Assembly (NCBI RefSeq): GCF_051903065.1
Contig: NZ_CP178438.1
DNA from: Escherichia coli
GTDB taxonomy: Bacteria; Pseudomonadota; Gammaproteobacteria; Enterobacterales; Enterobacteriaceae
Length of the DNA stretch: 64,000 bases
Strand: one strand, 5' to 3'
Under the pieces are notes generated by a model. That model saw only the letters and a list, made by a program, of their open reading frames with translations. It searched no databases and was not told where the DNA came from. Shown piece by piece: positions 4,229-56,418 of the stretch. The translations under genes were made by a program, and so were the position numbers. Numbering within the stretch: the first letter of the stretch is position 1; each line of letters opens with the position of its first letter.

Positions 4229-5176
4229 TTATTTCAGTAATAGTTCAGCTGTGCTGCTATTCGTTACCAGACAATTAATATATTTTCCACGCAGTGCACC
4301 AATAATTCCGCTGTATTTTTCTTCACTCATGGCAATGCCAATGGAATATCGTGCCTGCTTTAATTTATTCATTTCGATAGAGAGTGTTTTTTCGCTCATA
4401 TTCGTTTCAACCATTGCGCCGTGAATATCAAAAAAGCGCGAGCAAATATCGCCAGCAACCTGGCGGGCATTCAGGTCGTCACTCTCTTCACCACCATAAA
4501 ACGCATGCCAGTTAGCGCCGTCGCGAATGGCCGGTGAGCCAATTCCCACCAGGGCGACATCCAGATTATCCCAGTAGGCAGAGATGGTTTTAAAGTGCTG
4601 AGACTGCATGATCCCATTACGAATTAATGGGTTATCCAGTAGAGCCGGAAAATCCGCGAGGTGCGATTCCCCTTTCAGCTTCGCTGCCGCGCTGTAGGTT
4701 AATGTGTTTACGTGATAGCGGCTTTCGAGTTTACCGGACGGTCCGCCAATAATTGGTACGCAGATTAACTGCCGCGATTGCCCCGCCTGCGGCAAGTTTT
4801 CAACCAGTGCGCTCACCGCGCGACCCCAGGAAAAACCGACAATATCGCCAGGCTCCAGCAAGCGATCCAGCAGTTGCGCGCCGTGTAACCCCATCATCGC
4901 CAGTTGAGTCTCTTCATCCTCATCATTTCCCGACACCACCACAACGTCTTTCAGGCCAAACTTTTGCTTCAGTTGCTGCTCCAGCCAGAGATTTTCGTTG
5001 TAGTCATAGTTGATGGCGATGGTGACAATTCCCTGATCGCGGCCTCGTTTAAGCAAGCGGCTGATGGTGGTGCGGTAAATACCCAGTTCGCGCGCGATTT
5101 GCGCCTGCGTCATATCCTGTTCGTAATAGAGTTGGGCAATCTTCACAATCAAACGGATATCGTCACTGTTTTCCAT
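4229..5176 (-). CDS. sorC: SorC-family transcriptional regulator
   Basis: ORF 4229..5260 in track; start placed at internal ATG (MENSDDIRLIV...) preceded by AGGAGG RBS; HTH segment QIARELGIYRTTISRLL followed by a sugar-binding domain. Confidence 0.75.
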   Translation of the reverse strand: MENSDDIRLIVKIAQLYYEQDMTQAQIARELGIYRTTISRLLKRGRDQGIVTIAINYDYNENLWLEQQLKQKFGLKDVVVVSGNDEDEETQLAMMGLHGAQLLDRLLEPGDIVGFSWGRAVSALVENLPQAGQSRQLICVPIIGGPSGKLESRYHVNTLTYSAAAKLKGESHLADFPALLDNPLIRNGIMQSQHFKTISAYWDNLDVALVGIGSPAIRDGANWHAFYGGEESDDLNARQVAGDICSRFFDIHGAMVETNMSEKTLSIEMNKLKQARYSIGIAMSEEKYSGIIGALRGKYINCLVTNSSTAELLLK

Positions 5177-5523
5177 TGCCGCCTCCTGGTTCTGCACATT
5201 TGTGCAAATACGCTTTCTCACCGCTTGATCTGATATAACCCCATCATGATGGCCTTTCAAAGCGATTTTTCACTCTTTGCATGGGGAGAAATAGCGCTTT
5301 CTCTTGCACATTTGTTTCTCTGCGCAGTAGTCATCAGCACAGGTGTGCGGAGATTCGTAATAGGTTGATTATCCTTATTTTGCCAGGCAAATTTGCATTG
5401 TACTTCCGGAGACACTTTTGTGATAAAAGGCGTGGCAGATCACATTTAATTTCGACGTTGCCGCATAACCCTGTTTTTCCCCGCTAAGAGGTACGGTATA
5501 TTCCGCGTTTTACAGGAGAATTT

Positions 5524-37689: not shown

Positions 37690-38105
37690 CGGATTATCAG
37701 CCATACAGGAAAGGAACTGTGCTTGCCCCAACTGGGCCATGCAATCATCTTCATGTGATTTGTAATGATCCTGTTTATTACCCCGTTAACGATTGTTATT
37801 GTGTTTTAGTTGTTAATATTTCTAGTATCAAGGATGGTGTCCCCCACGATCCGTCTTGCGTCTTGAATTCTGGTGATCATCGCTTTATCAAGCATCCAAG
37901 TTATGTTGTTTACGCTGAAGCTATAATTTGGCGAGTGGATAACATGGTTAGAAAGCAGCGATCGGGTGAGATTTCTGTTCATGATGATATGCCAGAAGCT
38001 ACATTCAATAGAATTCTGGACGGTTTTGATATCTCTGATGAAGTTACGCCAAAGAACCTTAAATTTAAAAATAAATATTGCGTATCATCTATTGATGATG
38101 AGTAA
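37686..38105 (+). CDS. Hypothetical 139-aa protein translationally coupled to the Panacea-like gene (candidate toxin/effector)
   Basis: ATGA start/stop overlap at 37686-37689; no family recognised; Cys/His cluster CNHLHVICND...DCYC. Confidence 0.5.
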   Translation: MTDYQPYRKGTVLAPTGPCNHLHVICNDPVYYPVNDCYCVLVVNISSIKDGVPHDPSCVLNSGDHRFIKHPSYVVYAEAIIWRVDNMVRKQRSGEISVHDDMPEATFNRILDGFDISDEVTPKNLKFKNKYCVSSIDDE

Positions 38106-45019: not shown

Positions 45020-45968
45020 TCTTGCATGCCGTATTGGTCTGAATGAGGCAATTGTGTTGCAGCAGCTTCATTACTGGCTGAATGAAACGAATTCAGGCAC
45101 TGAGCATGGCGGAATTCGCTGGGTTTATAACACGACAGAACAGTGGCTGGAGCAGTTTCCGTTCTGGTCAGAGTCCACTCTGAAACGCACATTTGCAAGC
45201 CTGAAATCACTTGGGGTTTTGCGTCGCGAGCAACTCAATAAATCGAAGCGTGACATGACCAACTTCTACACGATCAACTATGAAAGTGAGCTTTTAGAAG
45301 AGGTCAAAGTGAACGAATCGATCAGGTCAAAATGCACTTCTCCATCGGGTCAAAGTGACCTGATGGATGGGCGCAAAATGACACGATCCATTGGTTCAAA
45401 ACGACACGCTGTCATCGGGTCAAAATGGCCCAATGATCTTACAGAGAATACAACAGAGATTACTACAGAGAATAAAACCTCTTCTCGTCCGGACGCTTCG
45501 CAACCGGACACGCAAACGGCTGAACAGGAGTTTTTAACTCGCCATCCTGATGCGGTTGTATTCAGCCCTAAAAAGCGCCAGTGGGGAACGCAGGATGATT
45601 TGACCTGCGCACAGTGGCTCTGGAAAAAAATCATCGCCCTGTACGAGCAGGCCGCCGAATGTGACGGCGAGGTGGTTCGTCCCAAAGAACCGAACTGGAC
45701 AGCCTGGGCAAACGAAATTCGCCTGATGTGTGTGCAGGATGGTCGTACTCACAAACAAATCTGCGAGATGTACAGCCGCGTCAGCCGCGATCCGTTCTGG
45801 TGCCGTAACGTGCTCAGCCCGTCGAAGTTGCGGGAAAAATGGGATGAGCTTTCCCTGCGCTTATCGCCGTCCGTCAGCACGCACACAGAAAAACGTGAAG
45901 ACCCGTACTTCAAAGCCAGTTACGACAACGTGGACTACAGCCAGATCCCGGCAGGATTCAGGGGGTGA
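44976..45968 (+). CDS. Phage replication initiation protein (O-like N-terminus)
   Basis: 330-aa ORF in the replication position after cro/cII; assignment by position and composition. Confidence 0.5.
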   Translation: MSLLMTSQPIVINRDLACRIGLNEAIVLQQLHYWLNETNSGTEHGGIRWVYNTTEQWLEQFPFWSESTLKRTFASLKSLGVLRREQLNKSKRDMTNFYTINYESELLEEVKVNESIRSKCTSPSGQSDLMDGRKMTRSIGSKRHAVIGSKWPNDLTENTTEITTENKTSSRPDASQPDTQTAEQEFLTRHPDAVVFSPKKRQWGTQDDLTCAQWLWKKIIALYEQAAECDGEVVRPKEPNWTAWANEIRLMCVQDGRTHKQICEMYSRVSRDPFWCRNVLSPSKLREKWDELSLRLSPSVSTHTEKREDPYFKASYDNVDYSQIPAGFRG

Positions 45969-46459
45969 TCATGAGTCTTTTGAATGAAGTTCAGAAATTC
46001 ATTGAAGCCCATCCGGGGTGTACTTCCGGAGACATTGCGGATGCTTTTGCAGGTTACTCACGGCAGCGCGTTCTGCAGTCAGCAAGCAAGTTACGTCAGA
46101 GTGGGCGTGTGGCTCACCGTTGTGAAGGAGATACACGCAGACATTTCCCACGCCTGACTGAGAGAGCGCAGGAGCCGGAACCACAACCAGTTCGTGAAAC
46201 CAGACCTGTGCGCAATTTCTATGTCGGCACTAACGATCCCCGGGTGATTTTGTGCCTGACCCGCCAGGCGGAAGAACTGGAGTCCAGGGGCCTATACCGT
46301 CGTGCTGCAACGGTGTGGATGGCGGCATTCCGTGAAAGCCACTCCCAGCCAGAACGAAACAATTTTCTGGTGCGTCGTGAGCAGTGTTTACGGAAAAGCA
46401 GCAAGCGCGCTGTATCGGGTGATGAGTGGTATCTGTCAGGGAATTACGTGGGGGCTTAA
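45965..46459 (+). CDS. PerC-like transcriptional activator homolog
   Basis: 164-aa ORF; segment LESRGLYRRAATVWMAAF resembles the PerC/Pch core from memory. Confidence 0.35.
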   Translation: MIMSLLNEVQKFIEAHPGCTSGDIADAFAGYSRQRVLQSASKLRQSGRVAHRCEGDTRRHFPRLTERAQEPEPQPVRETRPVRNFYVGTNDPRVILCLTRQAEELESRGLYRRAATVWMAAFRESHSQPERNNFLVRREQCLRKSSKRAVSGDEWYLSGNYVGA

Positions 46460-47112
46460 TGAGTAATAAATATTGCCAGGAGCTGGTGGAACTGCGGAAC
46501 AAACCAGCCCATGAACTGAAGGAAGTGGGTGATCAGTGGCGCACGCCGGACAACATTTTCTGGGGAATTAACACCCTGTTTGGCCCGTTTGTTCTGGATC
46601 TGTTCACTGACGGTGATAACGCCAAATGTGCCGCGTATTACACGGCGGAAGACAACGCGCTGGCGCATGACTGGTCAGAACGCCTTGCGGAGCTTAAAGG
46701 TGCTGCCTTTGGTAATCCTCCATACAGCCGCGCCAGTCAGCATGAGGGGCAATACATCACCGGCATGCGTTACATCATGAAACATGCCAGTGCCATGCGT
46801 GATAAGGGCGGGCGCTATGTTTTCCTGATCAAAGCTGCCACCAGCGAAGTGTGGTGGCCGGAAGATGCAGATCATATTGCTTTTATTCGCGGGCGTATTG
46901 GTTTTGAACTGCCTGTCTGGTTTATCCCGAAAGACGAGAAGCAGGTACCGACAGGAGCTTTTTTCGCTGGTGCTATTGCTGTTTTTGACAAGACCTGGAA
47001 GGGACCGGCAATCAGCTACATCGGGCGCGATGAACTTGAGGCATGTGGTGAGGCGTTTCTGGCGCAGGTTCGCCAGCAGGCGGAAAAACTGGTCAGGGAG
47101 ATGGCGGCATGA
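46459..47112 (+). CDS. Phage DNA N6-adenine methyltransferase (Dam-like)
   Basis: ORF 46426..47112; start at MSNKYCQ (GGGGG RBS); catalytic NPPY motif (FGNPPYSRA). Confidence 0.7.
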   Translation: MSNKYCQELVELRNKPAHELKEVGDQWRTPDNIFWGINTLFGPFVLDLFTDGDNAKCAAYYTAEDNALAHDWSERLAELKGAAFGNPPYSRASQHEGQYITGMRYIMKHASAMRDKGGRYVFLIKAATSEVWWPEDADHIAFIRGRIGFELPVWFIPKDEKQVPTGAFFAGAIAVFDKTWKGPAISYIGRDELEACGEAFLAQVRQQAEKLVREMAA

Positions 47113-47435
47113 CGACATTAACTCAATGCCAGCAGCAGGTGCTGGATATGCTGATTTCTTATCAGAAAGAGCGTGGCTTTCCGCCAACCAATCAGGAGGT
47201 GGCAACCATGCTGGGATACCGTTCAGTGAATGCAGCGGTGGAGCATCTTCGCGCACTGGAGAAAAAAGGCGTCATCACGATAAAGCGTGGCGTGGCCCGG
47301 GGGATAACGCTTCATACCGCGGTGAAGGACGACGACAGCGAGGCGGTCGGGATTATCCGCGCACTGCTTGCCGGTGAGGAAAACGCAAGGCTGCGTGCAA
47401 CCCACTGGTTACATGAGAGGGACCTGAAAGTATGA
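47109..47435 (+). CDS. LexA N-terminal DNA-binding-domain paralog (no S24 peptidase domain)
   Basis: 108-aa ORF MTTLTQCQQQVLDMLISYQKERGFPPTNQEVATMLGYRSVNAAVEHLRALEKKGVITIKRGVARGITL aligns by eye with host LexA residues 1-70 in this window. Confidence 0.7.
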   Translation: MTTLTQCQQQVLDMLISYQKERGFPPTNQEVATMLGYRSVNAAVEHLRALEKKGVITIKRGVARGITLHTAVKDDDSEAVGIIRALLAGEENARLRATHWLHERDLKV

Positions 47436-47821
47436 AGCTGATCCTGCCTTTTCCGCCCAGCGTGAACACGTACTGGCGACACCCCAACAAAGGGGCATTT
47501 TCTGGTAAGAGCCTGATAAGCGCGGCGGGGCGAAAATTTCAGAGCGCGGCGTGCGCAGCAATAGTTGAGCAGTTACGTCGTCTGCCAAAACCAACGTCGG
47601 CACCTGCTTCAGTGGAGATCGTGTTGTTTCCTCCGGATAACCGGATCCGCGATCTGGACAACTATAACAAGGCGCTGTTTGACGCCCTGACCCACGCGGG
47701 TGTGTGGGAAGACGACAGACAGGTGAAAAGAATGCTGGTGGAGTGGGGACCGGTTATCCCGGAAGGGAAGGTCGAGATCACTATCAGTAAGTACGAGAAA
47801 ACGGCGGGTGCAGCCGCCTGA
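47432..47821 (+). CDS. rusA: Holliday-junction resolvase RusA
   Basis: 129-aa ORF MKLILPFPPSVNTYWRH... with D-x-D-N-Y catalytic segment (RDLDNYNKALFDAL). Confidence 0.85.
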   Translation: MKLILPFPPSVNTYWRHPNKGAFSGKSLISAAGRKFQSAACAAIVEQLRRLPKPTSAPASVEIVLFPPDNRIRDLDNYNKALFDALTHAGVWEDDRQVKRMLVEWGPVIPEGKVEITISKYEKTAGAAA

Positions 47822-47840
47822 GCAAAAGGAGAAACGAAGT

Positions 47841-48650
47841 ATGAATAATCTGATGGTCATTGATGGTATTGAAGTTCGTCGTGATGCTTATGGGCGTTAC
47901 AGCCTGAACGATCTGCATCGCGCAGCAGTAGCATCTGGTGCAAATGCCAGAACCAAGGAGCCGGGAAAGTTTCTTTCCAGCCAACAAACTGTTGAGCTTG
48001 TTCATGAATTGACCAACACCCAGAATTTGGGTGTTGACCCGGTGAGTGTGATTCATGGGGGAAATGAAAGGGGAACGTATGTCTGCAAGGAACTGGTGTA
48101 TGCCTATGCAATGTGGATCAGCCCGTCATTCCATCTGAAGGTGATCCGTACTTTCGATATGGTAACCAGCGCACCGGAAAAATTATCCGGACAGGCTGCT
48201 GACAAGATGCAGGCTGGCGTGATCCTGCTGGACTTTATGCGCCGGGAGTTAAACCTGTCTAACTCTTCAGTGCTTGGTGCCTGTCAGAAACTCCAGGAGG
48301 CTGTTGGCTTACCGAATCTGGCACCGCGCTATGCCATTGATGCTCCTGCTGACGCGCCTGATGGCTCAAGCCGCCCCACGCTATCATTGAGTGCACTGCT
48401 GAAGCAGTATGGTATCCGCCTGACAGCTAATCAGGCATATCACCAGATGGCGAAGCTGGGGATCGTTGAACAACGTGAACGATACAGCCGCACTGCGATT
48501 AACAACATCAAAAAATTCTGGTCGCTGACAGCGAAAGGCTGCATGTTCGGCAAGAACATCACCAGTCCCGCAAATCCGCGCGAGACGCAGCCGCATTTCT
48601 TCGAATCCCGATTCCCTGAGCTGTTAAAGCTGCTCGATACCGTTCATTGA
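47841..48650 (+). CDS. KilA-N domain protein (antirepressor-like)
   Basis: ORF 47808..48650; start at MNNLMVIDGIEV (AAGGAG RBS); KilA-N-like N-terminus. Confidence 0.55.
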   Translation: MNNLMVIDGIEVRRDAYGRYSLNDLHRAAVASGANARTKEPGKFLSSQQTVELVHELTNTQNLGVDPVSVIHGGNERGTYVCKELVYAYAMWISPSFHLKVIRTFDMVTSAPEKLSGQAADKMQAGVILLDFMRRELNLSNSSVLGACQKLQEAVGLPNLAPRYAIDAPADAPDGSSRPTLSLSALLKQYGIRLTANQAYHQMAKLGIVEQRERYSRTAINNIKKFWSLTAKGCMFGKNITSPANPRETQPHFFESRFPELLKLLDTVH

Positions 48651-48651
48651 G

Positions 48652-49647
48652 GTGACCGTGAGAGCACTACTGACTCCTGAAATTGCCCCGCGTATGGGGA
48701 TCGTATTGTTCAGGCCAGGTTCAGAGCTGATGCCCCTGTTTATGCAGGGGCGTGTCCTGTTGGAGCCTGAGCCGGAACGTTATTCATCTTTTGCCAGTGG
48801 TGCCGTTCCGGCGGTATCACAACCGCTGGCGGATGATCCTGCCGTTCGGGGCGTGTTCCGCAATGAGGCAGTGATCCGTCGTGCTGGTGGCGTGGAATGT
48901 CTTGAAAGCTGGTTACTTCGTGAAAAGGGCTGTCAGTGGCCTCATTCCGACTGGCACAGCGAGAACATGACCACAATGCGGCACGCGCCGGGCGCAATCC
49001 GTCTGTGCTGGCACTGCGATAACCAGCTGCGCGATCAGTTCACGGAACGGCTGGAATCAATGGCAACGGATAACTGTGCCCGCTGGGTATTGTCTGTTGT
49101 GCGTCGGGATCTCGGTTTTGATGATAGTCACGTTGTGACAATGCCGGAACTGTGCTGGTGGCTGGTTCGTAATGACCTGGCGGATGCCTTACCGGAAAGT
49201 GCAGCCCGTAAGGCACTGAGATTACCGAAGCCTGTTGTGCCGTCTGTCACCCGGGAAAGTGACCTTGTGCCTTCGGTTCCTGCCACCAGCATCATCCAGG
49301 ATAAGGCGAAAAAGGTGCTGGCGCTGAAAGTGGATCCGGAGTCGCCGGAGTCTTTTATGTTACGCCCAAAACGTCGCCGCTGGGTTAATGAAAAGTACAC
49401 GCGCTGGGTTAAGACACAGCCGTGTGCATGTTGTGGAAAGCCCGCTGATGATCCCCACCACCTGATAGGCCACGGTCAGGGGGGAATGGGTACAAAAGCG
49501 CATGACCTCTTTGTGTTGCCTTTGTGCAGAAAGCATCACGACGAGCTGCATGCGGATACCGTGGCATTTGAAGAGAAGTATGGCTCCCAGTTGGAGCTGA
49601 TATTTCGTTTTATCGATCGTGCGCTGGCAATAGGCGTACTGGCGTAA
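48652..49647 (+). CDS. DUF968-family phage protein
   Basis: 331-aa ORF with C-terminal CACCGKPADDPHHLIGHGQGGMGTKAHD...PLCRKHHDELH; start uncertain. Confidence 0.55.
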   Translation: MTVRALLTPEIAPRMGIVLFRPGSELMPLFMQGRVLLEPEPERYSSFASGAVPAVSQPLADDPAVRGVFRNEAVIRRAGGVECLESWLLREKGCQWPHSDWHSENMTTMRHAPGAIRLCWHCDNQLRDQFTERLESMATDNCARWVLSVVRRDLGFDDSHVVTMPELCWWLVRNDLADALPESAARKALRLPKPVVPSVTRESDLVPSVPATSIIQDKAKKVLALKVDPESPESFMLRPKRRRWVNEKYTRWVKTQPCACCGKPADDPHHLIGHGQGGMGTKAHDLFVLPLCRKHHDELHADTVAFEEKYGSQLELIFRFIDRALAIGVLA

Positions 49648-49660
49648 GTGGAGAACGAGC

Positions 49661-50413
49661 ATGAACCTTGAAGCCTTACCAAAATATTACTCCCCAAAAT
49701 CTCCCAAATTGAGCGATGAGGCACCGGCGACAGGCTCGAGTGGTTTAACGATTACGGATGTGATGGCTGCGCAGGGGATGGTGCAGTCGAAAGCACCGCT
49801 TGGGTTTGCCTTATTTCTGGCAAAAGTTGGTGTTCAGGATCCTCAGTTTGCGATTGAAGGTCTGCTCAATTACGCGATGGCACTGGATAACCCGACATTG
49901 AACAAATTGAGTGAAGAAACCCGGTTACAGATCATCCCTTACCTTGTGAATTTTGCCTTTGCTGATTATTCCAGGTCTGCTGCAAGTAAGGCTCGCTGTG
50001 AGCATTGTGCTGGTACTGGATTTCATAATGTATTGCGCGAAGTGGTGAAACACTCCAGAAGCGGGGAATCTGTTATCAAGGAAGAGTGGGTGAAGGAACT
50101 ATGTCAGCATTGTTATGGTAAGGGAGAGGTCAGCACAGCGTGTAGAGGGTGTAAGGGGAAAGGTATTGTACTGGATGAAAAAAGAACCCGGCTTCATGGT
50201 GCGCCTGTTTATAAGGTTTGTGGGCGTTGCAATGGAAACCGGTTTAGCCGTTTACCAACCACACTGGCGCGGCATCATGTCCAGAAGCTGGTACCGGATC
50301 TGACGGATTATCAGTGGTACAAAGGATATGCAGATGTCATTGATAAACTGGTTACAAAGTGCTGGCAGGAAGAAGCATATGCAGAGACACAATTGAGAAA
50401 AGTGACAAGATAA
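49661..50413 (+). CDS. Late-gene antiterminator Q-like protein
   Basis: 250-aa ORF with zinc-binding cysteine pairs (CEHCAGTG, CQHCYGKG, CRGCKGKG, CGRCNG); immediately upstream of candidate late promoter and terminator. Confidence 0.65.
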   Translation: MNLEALPKYYSPKSPKLSDEAPATGSSGLTITDVMAAQGMVQSKAPLGFALFLAKVGVQDPQFAIEGLLNYAMALDNPTLNKLSEETRLQIIPYLVNFAFADYSRSAASKARCEHCAGTGFHNVLREVVKHSRSGESVIKEEWVKELCQHCYGKGEVSTACRGCKGKGIVLDEKRTRLHGAPVYKVCGRCNGNRFSRLPTTLARHHVQKLVPDLTDYQWYKGYADVIDKLVTKCWQEEAYAETQLRKVTR

Positions 50414-50446
50414 ATGATTTTCGCCGAAGATGGCGACATGATGCTT

Positions 50447-50476
50447 GCATTTTTCAAAAAATATGGATAAGATTTT
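50447..50476 (+). promoter_or_regulatory. Candidate late promoter (PR'-like)
   Basis: TTGCAT, 17-bp spacer, TAAGAT. Confidence 0.45.
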
Positions 50477-50520
50477 CCCAACGATGGGCTTTGTATGTCT
50501 ACCGTTGATAAGATTTAAGA

Positions 50521-50550
50521 ACCCGCCACTGAGCGGGTTTTTTGTACCTG
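50521..50550 (+). terminator. Rho-independent terminator (tR'-like)
   Basis: aacccgccactgagcgggttttttg. Confidence 0.7.
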
Positions 50551-50665
50551 TAAACTTGGTGCAGTACAGTAAACACGCTGGTGGTCGTGAATACTGACTT
50601 TTTATCTTGCTGGATTTTTAGACAAGAGTTATTGGTATGTCATGTTAACCAGAAGGGAAAAAGAC

Positions 50666-50869
50666 ATGCTAAAACAGCAAGATATGACAGAAACCGCCGC
50701 CGCAGTCCTTCATTTCTTACCTGCTGACAAGTGGGTAACGCCACGCATGATGACGAGAACTACCGGAGTAAGCGAAGCCCGGTGCCAGTTAATACTGACT
50801 CAGTTAGTTCTGGCGGGTCTGGCGAAGGATAACGGCGGGTACGGGAATAAATTCAGACGCTGCCAGTAA
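50666..50869 (+). CDS. Small hypothetical protein, possible winged-helix
   Basis: ORF 50642..50869; likely start at second ATG (MLKQQDMTETAAAV...). Confidence 0.35.
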   Translation: MLKQQDMTETAAAVLHFLPADKWVTPRMMTRTTGVSEARCQLILTQLVLAGLAKDNGGYGNKFRRCQ

Positions 50870-51019
50870 TGGCGGTTTCCTGCTGTGAAAATGGGCGGCT
50901 GGTGGGTGTTGGTAGCACCTGCCAGCCATTCGCTCATGCTTACTGGTCACAAGCGAACCACGGCCCACTGCTTTAGCGCAAAAGCAGAGTGAGCCTACCA
51001 GAGTTACGCTTACTGATCC

Positions 51020-52072
51020 ATGAAAAATACTGTAAAAATAAACAGTGTTGATTTAATCAACGCTGATTGCCTGCATTTTATTCAGTCCCTGCCTGATGAT
51101 TCCATTGACCTGATTGTTACCGATCCGCCTTACTTCAAGGTGAAACCTAACGGTTGGGACAATCAGTGGAAAGGGGACGAAGATTACCTTAAGTGGCTGG
51201 ACCACTGTCTGGCCCAGTTCTGGCGGGTGTTGAAACCTGCCGGAAGCCTTTACCTGTTCTGTGGGCATCGCCTGGCATCTGATATTGAGATCATGATGCG
51301 TGAACGTTTCAACGTGCTTAACCATATCATCTGGGCGAAGCCGTCCGGACGTTGGAATGGGTGTAATAAAGAAAGTCTGCGCGCATATTTTCCTGCCACA
51401 GAGCGCGTTCTGTTTGCTGAACATTACCAGGGGCCATATCGCGGCAAAAGTGACGGCTATGCGGCAAAAGAAAGGGAACTCAAACAGCACATAATGGCAC
51501 CGCTGATATCGTATTTCAGGGATGCTCGTGCCGAACTGGGTATAACGGCAAAACAAATTGCCGAAGCCACAGGTAAGAAAAATATGGTTTCCCACTGGTT
51601 TGGTGCCAGTCAGTGGCAGTTGCCGAATGAGGCTGACTATCGGAAGTTACAGGCACTGTTTTCCCGTATAGCGGCAGAGAAGTTTCAGGAACAACAACTG
51701 GAACAACCACACCACCAGCTGGTGGCATCTTATGATTCACTGAATCGCAAATATTCTGAATTGCTGGATGAGTTTAAATCTCTCCGGCGCTATTTCTCCG
51801 TATCAGTCTCCGTGCCTTATACCGATGTCTGGACGCATAAGCCCGTTCAGTTCTACCCGGGTAAACATCCGTGCGAGAAACCGACGGATATGCTCCGGCA
51901 AATAATCAATGCCAGTAGTCGACCTGGTGATCTGGTTGCTGATTTCTTTATGGGATCCGGTTCCACAATAAAAGCAGCAATGGCGCTGGGGCGTCGGGCG
52001 TTAGGTGTTGAACTTGAGTCAGAGCGGTTTAATCAGACGGTGAAAGAGGTAAGTGAACTGGTGGGGAAATAA
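51020..52072 (+). CDS. Orphan DNA methyltransferase (N6/N4 class, DPPY motif)
   Basis: 350-aa ORF with DPPYF catalytic motif and C-terminal SAM-binding segment FFMGSGSTI. Confidence 0.75.
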   Translation: MKNTVKINSVDLINADCLHFIQSLPDDSIDLIVTDPPYFKVKPNGWDNQWKGDEDYLKWLDHCLAQFWRVLKPAGSLYLFCGHRLASDIEIMMRERFNVLNHIIWAKPSGRWNGCNKESLRAYFPATERVLFAEHYQGPYRGKSDGYAAKERELKQHIMAPLISYFRDARAELGITAKQIAEATGKKNMVSHWFGASQWQLPNEADYRKLQALFSRIAAEKFQEQQLEQPHHQLVASYDSLNRKYSELLDEFKSLRRYFSVSVSVPYTDVWTHKPVQFYPGKHPCEKPTDMLRQIINASSRPGDLVADFFMGSGSTIKAAMALGRRALGVELESERFNQTVKEVSELVGK

Positions 52073-52077
52073 TTCTG

Positions 52078-52102
52078 GTGGCCACGTTGCGTGGCCTTTT
52101 TA
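52078..52102 (+). terminator. Hairpin terminator after methyltransferase gene
   Basis: ggccacgttgcgtggcc followed by TTTTTATTT. Confidence 0.55.
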
Positions 52103-52148
52103 TTTCCAACACAGCACCCGCAAATATCGCGAGGTGAGAGATGACGAA

Positions 52149-52484
52149 ATGCCTCATAACCCAAATACCTGGCCGGACTGGCTGGAGTTGTTTCAGAGCT
52201 GGTGGCGTGGAGACACACCGCTGGGTGCAGTGATTATGTCGATCGTTATGGCTGGTTTGCGCATCGCCTATTTTGGCGGTGGTGGTGGCTGGAAGCGAAA
52301 AACGCTCGAGATTTTGCTCTGTGGCGCTCTGACGCTGACCTTTGCATCCGCTCTTGAATATGTCGGATGGCCTAAATCGCTTTCTGTTGCCATTGGTGGT
52401 GGCGTGGGGCTGATCGGTGTCGATGCTATTCGTGGGGCTGCAATGCGAGTAATCGGTAACAAATTTGGTAGCTCGAAGGAGTAA
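52149..52484 (+). CDS. Putative holin
   Basis: ORF 52053..52484; start at MPHNPNTWPDW; hydrophobic segments; directly upstream of endolysin. Confidence 0.5.
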   Translation: MPHNPNTWPDWLELFQSWWRGDTPLGAVIMSIVMAGLRIAYFGGGGGWKRKTLEILLCGALTLTFASALEYVGWPKSLSVAIGGGVGLIGVDAIRGAAMRVIGNKFGSSKE

Positions 52485-52487
52485 TTT

Positions 52488-52964
52488 ATGCAGGCACTAA
52501 ATTCCCAGCGTAAAGCTTTCCTGGATATGGTGGCATGGTCAGAAGGAACGGATAACGGGCGACAACCGACACGTAACCACGGTTATGATGTTATTGTTGG
52601 TGGCGAACTGTTCACTGATTACTCCGATCACCCTCGCAAACTTGTCACGCTAAACCCAAAACTCAAATCAACAGCCGCCGGACGTTACCAGCTTCTTTCC
52701 CGTTGGTGGGATGCCTATCGTAAGCAGCTTGGCCTGAAAGACTTCTCTCCGAAAAGCCAGGACGCTGTGGCATTGCAGCAGATTAAGGAGCGTGGCGCTT
52801 TACCGATGATTGATCGCGGTGATATCCGTCAGGCTATCGATCGTTGCAGCAATATCTGGGCGTCGTTACCTGGTGCAGGTTATGGTCAGTATGAACATAA
52901 AATCAGTGATCTGATTTCCCGGTTTAAAGAGGCTGGTGGGGTGGTAAATGAAGTTGAGCTATAA
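52488..52964 (+). CDS. R: Endolysin, lambda R-type lytic transglycosylase
   Basis: 158-aa ORF ...QRKAFLDMVAWSEGTDNGRQPTRNHGYDVIVGGELFTDYSDHPRKLV... closely resembles lambda R from memory. Confidence 0.9.
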   Translation: MQALNSQRKAFLDMVAWSEGTDNGRQPTRNHGYDVIVGGELFTDYSDHPRKLVTLNPKLKSTAAGRYQLLSRWWDAYRKQLGLKDFSPKSQDAVALQQIKERGALPMIDRGDIRQAIDRCSNIWASLPGAGYGQYEHKISDLISRFKEAGGVVNEVEL

Positions 52965-53340
52965 GCTGGTTATCGCTGCATTCTTCTTTACTGTCATCGG
53001 TTCTTTCATCTGGTCTGCCAACCACTACTACAGCAAATATCAGCACGAAAAGAAACGTGCTGATGAGGCTGTACAAAATGCCAAATCGGCAACTGTCATT
53101 ACCAATAACGTCCTGCAATCACTGCAAATCGTCAATACAGTTCTGGAGGCTAACCAGCATGCAAAACAGCAGATCACACTGGAGTCACAGAGAACCCAGG
53201 AAGATATCAAAGTGGCTGTTGCGGATGATGATTGTGCTTCACGTCCTGTGCCTGCTGCCGCTGCTGACCGGTTGCGGAAGTACGCGAACAGTTTACGTAC
53301 CGATTCCGGCGGTACCGTTGCCAGCAAGCCTGACTACTGA
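52948..53340 (+). CDS. i-spanin (Rz-like)
   Basis: 130-aa ORF with N-terminal TM segment and coiled-coil-like body; after endolysin. Confidence 0.65.
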   Translation: MKLSYKLVIAAFFFTVIGSFIWSANHYYSKYQHEKKRADEAVQNAKSATVITNNVLQSLQIVNTVLEANQHAKQQITLESQRTQEDIKVAVADDDCASRPVPAAAADRLRKYANSLRTDSGGTVASKPDY

Positions 53341-53497
53341 AACTCCCCAGCCAGTCATTCCCGAGCCGCTGACCTATGGGGCCAGTCTGGATCTGAATGT
53401 GAGCCTGCTTTCGGCGTTGGGACAATGCAATATTGACAAAGCGGGGATTCGAAGTATCGAGATGCGCCGTAACGCTTTGCTGGCAGCAGGCAAATAG
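53225..53497 (+). CDS. o-spanin (Rz1-like lipoprotein) in alternative frame, overlapping and extending past Rz
   Basis: ATG at 53225; MMIVLHVLCLLPLLTGCGS lipobox; Pro-rich body. Confidence 0.6.
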   Translation: MMIVLHVLCLLPLLTGCGSTRTVYVPIPAVPLPASLTTETPQPVIPEPLTYGASLDLNVSLLSALGQCNIDKAGIRSIEMRRNALLAAGK

Positions 53498-53523
53498 TCC
53501 GGACAAAGAACAGGAATATATTT

Positions 53524-53874
53524 ATGCCCCCTCGAACTCCAAAAGCCTGCCGCGTTCGCGGCTGCCGTAATACCACGACAGACCCGTCAGGCTACTGCGA
53601 AAGCCACAAAAGCGAAGGCTGGAAGCAATACAAGTCAGGACAATCCCGTCATCAGCGCGGTTATGGTTCTAAGTGGGATGTTATCCGTGTGCGTGTGCTG
53701 CAACGTGACAAAGGCCTGTGTCAGTTATGTCTGCGTGCCGGTGTGGCGCGTGAAGCGAAAACCGTTGACCACATCATCCCTAAAGCACATGGCGGCACTG
53801 ATGCCGACAGTAATCTGCAGAGTCTGTGCTGGCCGTGTCATAAGGCGAAGACGGCCCGTGAACGGCTTAAGTGA
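53524..53874 (+). CDS. HNH endonuclease (terminase-associated)
   Basis: 116-aa ORF with HNH zinc motif CQLCLRAG...DHIIPKAHGG...NLQSLCWPCH. Confidence 0.8.
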   Translation: MPPRTPKACRVRGCRNTTTDPSGYCESHKSEGWKQYKSGQSRHQRGYGSKWDVIRVRVLQRDKGLCQLCLRAGVAREAKTVDHIIPKAHGGTDADSNLQSLCWPCHKAKTARERLK

Positions 53875-53999
53875 TAATAACTCTCAACTGTCTGAGGGGA
53901 GGGGCGGGTCAAATCTCTGTGACCTGACGTCTTCCGGACTGCCCGCCCCATCGTTTTTTTATACCCGCGAAAAATGAAATTTAACCAGGAGTGCCGCAT

Positions 54000-54494
54000 A
54001 TGGCTGGAACGGCGGGGCGTTCCGGGCGTCGCCCCAAGCCAACGGCGCGCAAGGCGCTGGCCGGAAACCCCGGCAAGCGAGCCCTGAACAAAGATGAACC
54101 TGTTTTTACGCCCATCAAAGGGGTTGAGCCACCGGAGTGGTTCGCAGAAGAAGATCTCCCTCTCGCTACGATCATGTGGCAACTGACAACTAAAGAACTC
54201 TGCGGTCAGGGTCTGCTGTGCGTGACTGACCTCGCGGTGCTTGAGCGGTGGTGCGTGGCCTACGAGTTCTGGCGACGTGCCGTGAAAAATATTGCCAGAC
54301 AGGGCAACACCATCACCGGTGCAATGGGCGGTATGGTCAAAAATCCGGAGCTGACCGCCAAAAAAGAACAGGAGTCCGAGATGAGCAGTACGGGGGCAAT
54401 GCTCGGACTCGACCCCAGCAGCCGCCAGCGTCTGATTGGCCTGGCGGGGCAGAAGAAAGCCACTAACCCGTTTCTGAAAATCATCGAATCATGA
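54000..54494 (+). CDS. Terminase small subunit
   Basis: ORF 53991..54494; start at [14 protein letters not shown] (AGGAG RBS); immediately upstream of large terminase. Confidence 0.7.
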
Positions 54495-56224
54495 GCCGGA
54501 AATCTTACCCCAACGTAAATGCTGCCAATCAGTATGCCCGTGATGTCGTGCGCGGAAAGATTGTGGCCTGCCAGTTTGTGATTCAGGCCTGCCAGCGCCA
54601 TCTTGATGACCTGATGGAGGAAAAAAGTAAGTCGTTTCGTTACCGCTTCGACAAGGACCTGGCTGAACGGGCCGCGAAATTTATTCAGCTGTTGCCGCAC
54701 ACCAAGGGTGAGTGGGCATTTAAACGGATGCCCATCACGCTGGAGCCGTGGCAGCTATTTGTGATCTGCTGTGCGTTTGGCTGGGTCAATAAAGGCACCC
54801 GGTTGCGCCGCTTCCGGGAGGTGTATACCGAAATTCCCCGTAAGAACGGCAAATCGGCAATCTCTGCCGGTGTTGCCCTGTATTGTTTTGCCTGTGATAA
54901 CGAGTTCGGCGCGGAAGTGTATTCCGGTGCCACGACGGAGAAACAGGCATGGGAAGTCTTTCGTCCGGCACGACTGATGTGTAAACGCACACCCATGCTG
55001 ACGGAAGCGTTCGGGATTGAGGTTAACGCCTCAAACATGAACCGTCCGGAGGATGGTGCGCGGTTTGAACCGCTGATCGGTAACCCCGGTGATGGTTCAT
55101 CACCCCACTGTGCCGTGGTGGATGAATATCACGAGCACGCCACAGATGCGCTTTACACCACGATGCTTACCGGGATGGGGGCGCGACGCCAGCCACTGAT
55201 GTGGGCCATTACCACCGCCGGGTACAACATTGAGGGGCCGTGCTACGACAAACGGCGGGAAGTCATCGAGATGCTCAACGGCTCGGTGCCCAACGATGAA
55301 CTGTTCGGGATCATCTATACCGTTGACGAAGGCGACGACTGGACCGACCCGCAGGTACTTGAAAAAGCTAACCCGAATATCGGTGTGTCGGTTTATCGCG
55401 AGTTTTTGTTAAGCCAGCAGCAACGTGCGAAAAATAACGCCCGTCTGGCAAACGTCTTTAAAACAAAACACCTCAATATCTGGGTGTCGGCGCGTTCGGC
55501 GTATTTCAACCTGGTGAGCTGGCAGAGCTGCGAGAATAAATCACTGACCCTTGAGCAGTTTGAGGGGCAGCCGTGCATTCTGGCCTTTGACCTGGCGCGT
55601 AAGCTGGATATGAACAGTATGGCGCGACTTTATACCCGCGAGATTGACGGTAAAACGCATTACTACAGTGTGGCTCCGCGCTTCTGGGTACCGTATGACA
55701 CGGTGTACAGCGTCGAGAAAAATGAAGATCGCCGGACAGCCGAACGCTTTCAGAAATGGGTGGAAATGGGCGTTCTGACCGTTACCGATGGTGCGGAGGT
55801 GGATTATCGCTACATCCTCGAGGAGGCCAAAGCGGCGAACAAAATCAGCCCGGTCAGTGAGTCACCCATCGACCCCTTCGGGGCGACCGGGCTGTCGCAT
55901 GACCTTGCGGATGAAGACCTGAACCCCATCACCATCATTCAGAACTACACCAACATGTCCGACCCGATGAAAGAGCTGGAAGCGGCAATTGAATCGGGGC
56001 GTTTTCATCATGACGGCAATCCCATCATGACCTGGTGTATCGGCAACGTGGTCGGCAAAACCATTCCGGGTAACGATGATGTGGTGAAGCCCGTCAAGGA
56101 GCAGGCGGAAAACAAAATTGATGGTGCAGTTGCGCTGATTATGGCGGTTGGCAGAGCCATGCTGTACGAGAAAGAAGACACGCTGTCTGATCACATTGAG
56201 TCCTACGGGATCCGCTCGCTTTAA
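54491..56224 (+). CDS. Terminase large subunit
   Basis: 577-aa ORF with Walker-A-like IPRKNGKSA and nuclease-domain acidic residues. Confidence 0.85.
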
Positions 56225-56235
56225 CTGAGGTAATT

Positions 56236-56418
56236 ATGATCATGCTGATTCTCGCGCCTCTGGTGGGCGTGCTGGGTGCGCTTTTGCTGGCGTATGGTGC
56301 CTGGCTGATTTATCCCCCGGCTGGGTTTGTTGTTGCCGGGGCGCTGTGCCTGTTCTGGTCGTGGCTGGTGGCGCGATATCTCGACCGTACACAGCCGTCT
56401 GTCGGCGGAGGTAAATAG
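56236..56418 (+). CDS. Small hydrophobic protein (60 aa)
   Basis: ORF from track; two predicted TM segments. Confidence 0.3.

Follow-up and report, generated by a model that had tools for sequence, protein, structure and literature searches.

Two DNA methyltransferase genes are carried by one prophage of Escherichia coli within the stretch of 64,000 nucleotides (nt) of contig NZ_CP178438.1 (assembly GCF_051903065.1) that was analysed here and is referred to below as the window. Methyltransferase 1 (METHYLTRANSFERASE 1; 46459-47112, + strand) is an early gene of the nin region and encodes a protein of 217 amino acids (aa) that was assigned to the phage Dam family of N6-adenine methyltransferases on the basis of PF05869, TIGR01712 and its NPPY motif. 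Methyltransferase 2 (METHYLTRANSFERASE 2; 51020-52072, + strand) encodes a beta-class N6-adenine methyltransferase of 350 aa, assigned to the M.EcoGII family by its match to PF01555 and its identity to M.EcoGII. A conserved leader of ~140 nt (50882-51022, + strand), predicted to be a structured RNA from a covariance-model match and from covariation, ends at the start codon of methyltransferase 2.

An initial annotation of this DNA had described both open reading frames (ORFs), the first with an NPPY and the second with a DPPY motif, and had placed the first in the early/nin region and the second just downstream of Q, within a single prophage. Our analysis bears this description out. Methyltransferase 1 is preceded by O-like and PerC-like genes and followed by those for a LexA DNA-binding domain (LexA-DBD) protein, RusA, KilA-N, DUF968 and the antiterminator Q (49661-50413, + strand; Pfam and PHROG matches), methyltransferase 2 lies shortly behind Q, and the prophage that holds both begins at ~36864, within the 5' part of dusA, and extends beyond the end of the window.

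A methyltransferase of the M.EcoGII family downstream of Q

Methyltransferase 2 matched the Pfam model PF01555 (N6_N4_Mtase) across residues 29-341 with an E value of 1.6e-42, and carries DPPY at residues 35-38 and FMGSG at residues 310-314, which is the motif order of the beta class. In comparison with M.EcoGII, 282 of 349 residues (81%) were identical over the full length, with two one-residue gaps; the reference sequence was machine-read from the PDF supplement of PMC11551740 (SUPREM) with minor errors, and the true identity may be slightly higher. The protein was also ~89% identical to the reconstructed ancestor Anc291, and the solved structures related to it by sequence are distant beta-class methyltransferases only. 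These similarities identify methyltransferase 2 as a predicted orthologue of M.EcoGII/M.EcoGI, and its most likely activity is methylation of adenine whatever the sequence context. Like M.EcoGII, it is prophage-borne and without a restriction partner.

M.EcoGII and M.EcoGI were described from prophages of E. coli O104:H4 C227-11 (Murray et al. 2018, PMC5778455). M.EcoGII is one of a very large family of prophage enzymes. It methylates adenine regardless of the surrounding bases, and does so in single-stranded DNA and RNA as well. Its constitutive expression was poorly tolerated or toxic; in the C227-11 lysogen M.EcoGI and M.EcoGII were both silent and no methylation signal was seen (PMC5778455). 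The authors suggested that the enzyme is switched on as the prophage excises, and favoured protection of progeny phage DNA from restriction as its function (PMC5778455). Every reconstructed ancestor that could be purified kept both DNA and RNA methylation activity (PMC11551740). In O111 Shiga toxin-producing E. coli (STEC), homologues of M.EcoGI/II were listed as “nonspecific” and the lysogen methylome showed no extra motif (PMC6602927), and in EC958, of sequence type 131 (ST131), an M.EcoGI homologue was transcribed well below dam (PMC4659465). The protein in the window shares with M.EcoGII the order of DPPY, target-recognition domain and FxGxG, nearly the same length (350 versus 349 aa) and the position after Q that is found in Shiga toxin (Stx) phages. 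It differs from it in 19% of the residues, mostly in the central target-recognition region, and in its host element, which is an SfV-like myovirus prophage at dusA and not one of the C227-11 prophages.

A Dam-type methyltransferase in the early operon

Methyltransferase 1 comprises 217 aa when read from its ATG, and an alternative GTG at 46426 would extend it to 228 aa. It scored 156 bits against Pfam PF05869 (“Dam”; E 9.7e-46, cut-off 28.1) and 256.5 bits against the NCBIfam equivalog TIGR01712 (phage_N6A_met; cut-off 97), and the family-model scores of the two methyltransferases exclude chance. Motif IV is formed by NPPY at residues 86-89 (NPPYS 86-90), and D25, W27, T29, P30, L46, D47 and N54 were invariant in an alignment with the Dam proteins of T1, HP1 and VT2-Sa. 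The gene starts within the stop codon of the PerC-like ORF (TAATG, 46457-46461) and in turn its stop codon overlaps the ATG of the ORF that follows (ATGA, 47109 versus 47112); it is translationally coupled on both sides in the early operon.

The closest relatives of this protein are phage-encoded: it is 98-99% identical to the dam products of SfII, the cdtI phage and Stx2c phages, and only 23-27% identical to the Dam proteins of T1, HP1 and VT2-Sa. With the latter group, which includes M.EcoT1Dam and M.EcoVT2Dam, it shares membership of PF05869 and of the TIGRFAM family, a small size without a separate target-recognition domain and the conserved elements DxWxTP, LD and NPPYS, and the VT2-Sa gene is likewise located in the early/nin region. 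Methyltransferase 1 differs from these proteins, which range from 173 to 237 aa, by ~10 extra residues after NPPYS and by an unrelated stretch of 60 residues at its C-terminus. The Dam enzymes of T1 and HP1 methylate GATC. M.EcoVT2Dam has been listed as GATC-specific (PMC6602927), and a prophage enzyme 35% identical to M.EcoT1Dam showed GATC methylation with marked off-target activity (PMC4996451).

From its family, GATC, perhaps with relaxed recognition, is our best guess for the target of methyltransferase 1, and we hold it to be probable by a modest margin. No relative of this protein could be detected by sequence in the PDB, and a literature search found no experimental study of the SfV-type Dam. 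GATC occurs in the prophage at an observed/expected ratio of 0.87, which is unremarkable, and counts of GATC and the other 4-mer palindromes revealed no avoidance that would hint at the specificity of the enzyme. A promoter scan of the window found no promoter-like site just upstream of the gene. The promiscuous Hia5-type methyltransferases were considered as relatives of methyltransferase 1 and rejected, as they are alpha-class, Dam-related enzymes with a C-terminal DPPY.

Orphan status and prevalence of the module

The initial annotation had also reported that no restriction endonuclease gene adjoins the two methyltransferases, which agrees with the present searches. In PADLOC both genes matched methyltransferase models only, and the RefSeq annotation of near-identical copies contains no restriction enzyme. 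The DUF968 protein (48652-49647), encoded between the two methyltransferases, had no match to any PADLOC restriction or defence model, and a terminase-associated HNH protein (53524-53874) showed weak generic HNH similarity (E about 1e-5). The neighbours (PerC, LexA-DBD, RusA, KilA-N, DUF968, Q, a small ORF and the holin) do not make up a Type II restriction-modification system with either gene, and both are classified here, from sequence, as orphan methyltransferases. Long antisense ORFs over both genes were without support and were treated as spurious.

The block that contains the pair (46000-52500) is 97-98% identical to vB_EcoM-720R4, SfV and mEp460, and ~95% identical to Stx2c phages. Prevalence was counted over 5,426 complete E. 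coli genomes, a match being required to span 80% or more of the query. The whole 6.5-kb block was found in 603 of these genomes, the Dam-type gene in 1,724, and the leader together with methyltransferase 2 in 1,158. The pairing of the two methyltransferases is thus common and already annotated, and constitutes an ordinary module of SfV-like/lambdoid prophages; the conserved leader RNA is the sole part of this locus that may be new. SfV (U82619), like mEp460 and vB_EcoM-720R4, has the same gene order over the block, an identical leader and the same terminators behind both Q and the methyltransferase; its genes are named dam and orf48. It differs from the window in the small ORF between the terminator and the leader, which is mosaic, and in the label “unknown” under which orf48 was deposited. 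What the present analysis shows directly is the identity of the genes with their motifs and order, their orphan status and how widespread they are.

Late-gene position and transcription signals

Downstream of Q, a pR'-like late promoter (TTGCAT, 17-nt spacer, TAAGAT; 50445-50473, + strand) was recognised by eye in a region that is near-identical in SfV. It is followed by a tR'-like intrinsic terminator (50520-50543, + strand), in which AACCCGC and GCGGGTT enclose CACTGA and precede TTTT, and whose homologous site in SfV is annotated as a rho-independent terminator. Next come a small ORF (50666-50869, + strand; phrog_331), the counterpart of SfV orf47 and mosaic relative to it, then methyltransferase 2, a terminator-like hairpin with a T-run (52080-52106, + strand; hairpin 52080-52096), whose homologous sites in SfV and phiKO2 are annotated as terminators, and the holin gene (52149-52484). 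Among the large genes of the predicted late transcript, methyltransferase 2 comes first, in a “moron” position. The pR'-like promoter and tR' would together yield a short terminated transcript of ~65 nt, a positional counterpart of the short lambdoid pR' RNAs; this transcript matched no Rfam family above threshold.

The same position, behind the late promoter with its terminator and ahead of the lysis genes, recurs in other phages. SfV shares it, with terminators annotated after Q and after orf48; an Stx2a phage has the order Q, small ORF, methylase, tRNAs and stx2AB; and in the record of the N15-like phage phiKO2 a “putative late promoter” and a terminator precede the methyltransferase, which is followed by a second terminator. 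From its position we infer that methyltransferase 2 is a late, Q-dependent gene, in agreement with the published silence of its homologues in lysogens.

The mosaic boundary relative to SfV is sharp (50666-50885 in the window, 5164-5370 in the SfV locus L008): the small ORF has been replaced and both flanks are nearly identical, from which it follows that the leader and methyltransferase 2 move as one module.

A conserved structured leader before methyltransferase 2

The 140 nt before the start codon of methyltransferase 2 are the same in the window and in SfV, despite the mosaic ORF just upstream, and their single-sequence fold is stable (z = -3.0). Homologous loci were gathered from INPHARED and IMG/VR, with methyltransferases ranging from ~43% to 100% identity to the protein in the window. 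Most of these loci carry the ~140-nt motif immediately 5' of the methyltransferase gene, with obvious compensatory changes. Covariance models were built from these sequences and searched against 95 sources (351 kb, both strands); 75 of them gave a match, a single one in each locus and always abutting the start codon, and the 64-kb window gave exactly one (E 2.6e-29). A search of viral contigs with a pattern independent of the protein returned 120 leader matches, of which 119 were followed 16-20 nt later by an ORF of the M.EcoGII family, the remaining one being truncated where its locus ends. The leader accompanies the methyltransferase through unrelated backbones, namely SfV-like, Stx, N15-like and Aeromonas phages.

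The model comprises five helices: P1 (50891-50896 with 50932-50937), P2 (50897-50910 with 50914-50927), P4 (50961-50964 with 50993-50996), P5 (50968-50973 with 50982-50987) and P7 (50945-50949 with 51014-51018), the 3' strand of the last ending 1 nt before the ATG. In the four helices P1, P2, P4 and P5, 91% of the alignment cells were paired, compared with 79.3 ± 0.5% after shuffling, and 250 cells were compensatory, compared with 70.8 ± 9.8; none of 500 shuffles reached the observed value, sliding the partners by 1-3 columns left at most 46% paired, and both sides change in 21 of the 30 pairs. With P7 included, 89.3% of the cells were paired (77.9 ± 0.4% shuffled) and 288 were compensatory (84.6 ± 10.4 shuffled; 0/500 shuffles reaching the observed value), and slid partners paired in at most 41%. 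P7 was weaker when taken alone (78.5% paired). These values come from alignments fitted to the model and from sequences that are related to each other, and RNAalifold on a plain MAFFT alignment recovered a partial leader structure only, so that realignment to the covariance model was needed. Judging by its many G-U pairs, the structure belongs to the mRNA strand.

Were 50929-50934 to pair with 50952-50957 instead, neither P1 nor P7 could form; this alternative pairing also shows compensatory changes, which suggests a switch. A crude energy test of the Shine-Dalgarno sequence, exposed versus hidden, did not separate the two proposed states. A GATC site lies in the 3' arm of P7 (51015-51018), 1 nt before the start codon, and in many relatives such a site is also present in the 5' arm (GAUCAC).

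Searches of Rfam 15 gave no match at the gathering threshold for 36000-64000 and none within 50870-51020 even at E values up to 10; nor, at E values no higher than 0.05, was the leader matched in any of ten related loci, of which eight possess it. The leader sequence was found in print in no paper of the literature searched. The prophage anti-sRNAs AsxR and AgvB were considered as candidates for it and rejected, as they are 51-60 nt long and located 3' of the moron gene.

That the leader is a structured RNA appears well supported by these comparisons, and a likely role for it is translational control of a toxic methyltransferase 2. Whether it is, beyond this, a real, functional and not yet described regulatory RNA element is a closer call, on which we lean slightly towards yes; a ligand-sensing riboswitch seems much less likely. 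Mechanistically, the leader could switch between two mutually exclusive pairings, and its effector could be a ligand such as S-adenosylmethionine (SAM) or S-adenosylhomocysteine (SAH), a phage protein, or the methyltransferase itself.

Among Aeromonas-phage relatives (L011 1230-1500; L145, L165-L167, L206) the leader is followed by a mini-ORF encoding a Mu-Com-like CxxC..CxxC zinc finger, and then by the methyltransferase, which is a com-mom-like arrangement. Other relatives of M.EcoGII (51-56% identity; L146-L153, L155-L158, L163) have a different conserved leader ~170 nt upstream, consisting of GATGCCTTGAGTACCTGAGACCCAG, CTGGAGAGGAAGCA, a hairpin and TGTATTCAAGGCTCTTT in this order, which looks structured and had no Rfam match in the three such loci scanned. 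The com-mom locus of Mu and comHia-hia5 (Drozdz et al. 2012, PMC3299994) resemble the present system in their broad, toxic adenine modification, which is late and post-transcriptionally controlled, and in that the Aeromonas-phage relatives of methyltransferase 2 have the Com-like mini-ORF directly upstream. Unlike methyltransferase 2, however, Hia5-type enzymes are alpha-class and Dam-related and Mom is no methyltransferase, and in place of a com gene the window has just the structured leader.

Proposed function and alternative explanations

The best explanation of the locus as a whole is, in our view, that two unrelated orphan N6-adenine methyltransferases act in the lytic cycle, to which we give a rough probability of 0.75. 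In the lysogen, the position of methyltransferase 2 downstream of the Q-dependent late promoter and its terminator would keep it silent, and its toxicity to the host would be the reason for such tight silencing. Upon induction, the early pR operon would make the Dam-type enzyme during phage replication, and this enzyme, with the specificity and role that we infer for it, would keep the fast-replicating phage DNA methylated early in the lytic cycle. Once Q acts, the late transcript would read through tR' into methyltransferase 2, whose product would methylate a large fraction of the adenines in replicating and packaged phage DNA, and the progeny could then withstand, in the next host, the many restriction systems of Types I, II and III whose action N6-methyladenine (m6A) blocks. 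The costs would be toxicity to the host and possibly a vulnerability to nucleases that depend on m6A. The leader, with one helix that stops just short of the start codon, probably restrains translation of methyltransferase 2 further. Candidate roles for a Dam-type enzyme beside a context-free one are early protection, the avoidance of hemimethylated GATC during fast replication, and regulation. In this account the specificities, the timing of expression and the anti-restriction role are carried over from characterised homologues.

The initial annotation had suggested that the two enzymes possibly differ in specificity, and that they serve either anti-restriction self-protection or epigenetic regulation. 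Different specificities are very probable by homology, a relative of M.EcoGII being expected to methylate adenine non-specifically and a member of the Dam family to recognise GATC or a similar site. As to the role, homology favours the anti-restriction part of that proposal, and its epigenetic part, understood as regulation in the lysogen, fares poorly. In favour of both methyltransferases acting as epigenetic regulators of host or prophage genes in the lysogen, it may be said that phage methyltransferases can reshape host expression, for which M.EcoGIII of an Stx phage has been cited as an example (PMC6602927), and that the depositors of SfV marked a possible promoter of dam's own. M.EcoGIII, however, belongs to an active restriction-modification system and is no orphan, and the scan of the window located nothing promoter-like upstream of the Dam gene. 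Both genes lie inside lytic operons, M.EcoGI/II are silent in the lysogen and toxic if expressed (PMC5778455), the EC958 homologue is barely transcribed (PMC4659465), and lysogen methylomes show no extra motif (PMC6602927), all of which makes such a role improbable. A more serious contender, although still unlikely, is that methyltransferase 1 has a specificity other than GATC, whether different, relaxed or absent, or another substrate. The GATC assignment is insecure because of the low identity to enzymes of known specificity, the insertion after motif IV and the divergent C-terminal half; the family member at 35% identity to T1 Dam is already markedly off-target (PMC4996451), and no solved structure is detectable by sequence. 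Against this, four characterised members of PF05869, from T1, HP1 and VT2-Sa together with M.Btr190III, all methylate GATC, and the score of methyltransferase 1 is far above the “equivalog” cut-off of TIGR01712.

An unrecognised restriction-modification-like pair, formed by one or both genes with, for example, the DUF968/HNH protein, is the least credible of the alternatives. The DUF968 protein does have a weak HNHc_6 nuclease signature, and its PHROGs label is HNH endonuclease, but the PADLOC restriction and defence models do not match it, ydfU-type DUF968 genes stand next to Q in relatives, where they are annotated as ordinary lambdoid genes, a nuclease that is specific for a sequence cannot have a context-free methyltransferase as its partner, and the methyltransferase of phiKO2 is by itself, with a terminator on either side. 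Hardly more plausible is the idea that both genes are decaying remnants without function in this copy, which would fit the frequency of dead genes in prophages and the location of the right end, including the integrase, outside the window. Both ORFs are nevertheless of full length with all catalytic motifs present, the proteins are 98-100% identical to copies in vB_EcoM-720R4, SfII, the cdtI phage and mEp460, which were isolated and are viable, other genomes hold identical DNA, and the adjoining late and structural genes are intact.

Several points weigh against two orphan enzymes acting in the lytic cycle as proposed here. The activity, expression and methylome ascribed to the two enzymes of this copy come from homologues; the pR'-like promoter falls below the consensus threshold of the promoter scan; and the target of methyltransferase 1 is uncertain for the reasons given above. 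The promoter marked by the SfV depositors is separate and placed before dam, and methyltransferase 1 may be expressed in the lysogen. Finally, an enzyme for GATC looks redundant for protection if methyltransferase 2 methylates every adenine, and the role of methyltransferase 1 may be another. For a comparison of the methylomes of lysogen and cured strain, the proposed two-enzyme account would predict no new motif, since methyltransferase 2 would be silent and motif-less and methyltransferase 1 would be masked by the Dam of the host. A blank lysogen methylome would be expected even if both enzymes are functional, and “no new motif” therefore cannot refute their function.

Prophage and chromosomal setting

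The window is chromosomal; its genes run in the order ubiA, plsB, dgkA, lexA, dinF, yjbJ, zur, one encoding a DUF2713 protein, and the 5' part of dusA, where phage DNA takes over. Of dusA, interrupted by the prophage, the first 35 codons (36759-36863) are kept, and foreign DNA starts at ~36864. The prophage (36864-64000, + strand) is delimited by this junction and its late and structural genes match SfV and mEp460, so that the host element would be a temperate phage of the SfV/mEp460 type; the insertion in dusA fits the dusA-specific integrase class. An annotated syntenic copy is present in strain MB53.

In its left part the prophage carries, in order, an accessory pair with one Panacea-domain member, the gene for a PrtN-like excisionase with leftward early genes, and the repressor with a cro-like gene. 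The middle part consists of YmfL, the O-like replication gene, the PerC-family ORF (yfdN-like; 45965-46459, + strand; PF06069), methyltransferase 1 and the remainder of the early operon from LexA-DBD through RusA, KilA-N and DUF968/HNH to Q (47109-50413, + strand; Pfam and PHROG matches). The late part runs from the small ORF and methyltransferase 2 through holin, endolysin, Rz, HNH and terminase to HK97-type head and myovirus tail genes. The accessory pair at the left end (37117-38105, + strand) comprises a SocA/Panacea-domain antitoxin-like ORF (PF13274) in a 4-nt overlap with a 139-aa ORF without Pfam match, and is likely a toxin-antitoxin or defence pair.

The right part of the prophage is also found, near-identical, in the leading region of a 205-kb IncF CTX-M-1 plasmid, pEND_Eco18005 (NZ_CP126947.1, 154.8-196.2 kb). 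The 6.5-kb block is 100% identical between this plasmid and the window, and the contiguous alignment is limited to 45466-63571. The plasmid copy is flanked by psiA, which is frameshifted, and by a parB-like gene, which is truncated; it has its integrase and a dusA 5' fragment, and represents either a prophage captured by the plasmid or a misassembly. Besides the prophage copy, the plasmid bears a leading-region methyltransferase of its own.

Implications

Annotation pipelines should call the 350-aa gene an M.EcoGII-type non-specific methyltransferase and not a site-specific one, and comparisons of lysogen and cured-strain methylomes will not reveal these two enzymes. M.EcoGII is already sold as a commercial enzyme, and the leader could serve those who express enzymes of this type. 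For the biology of these phages, the leader, if it acts as proposed, would give a direct handle on how they silence a genome-wide, host-toxic methyltransferase until it is needed.

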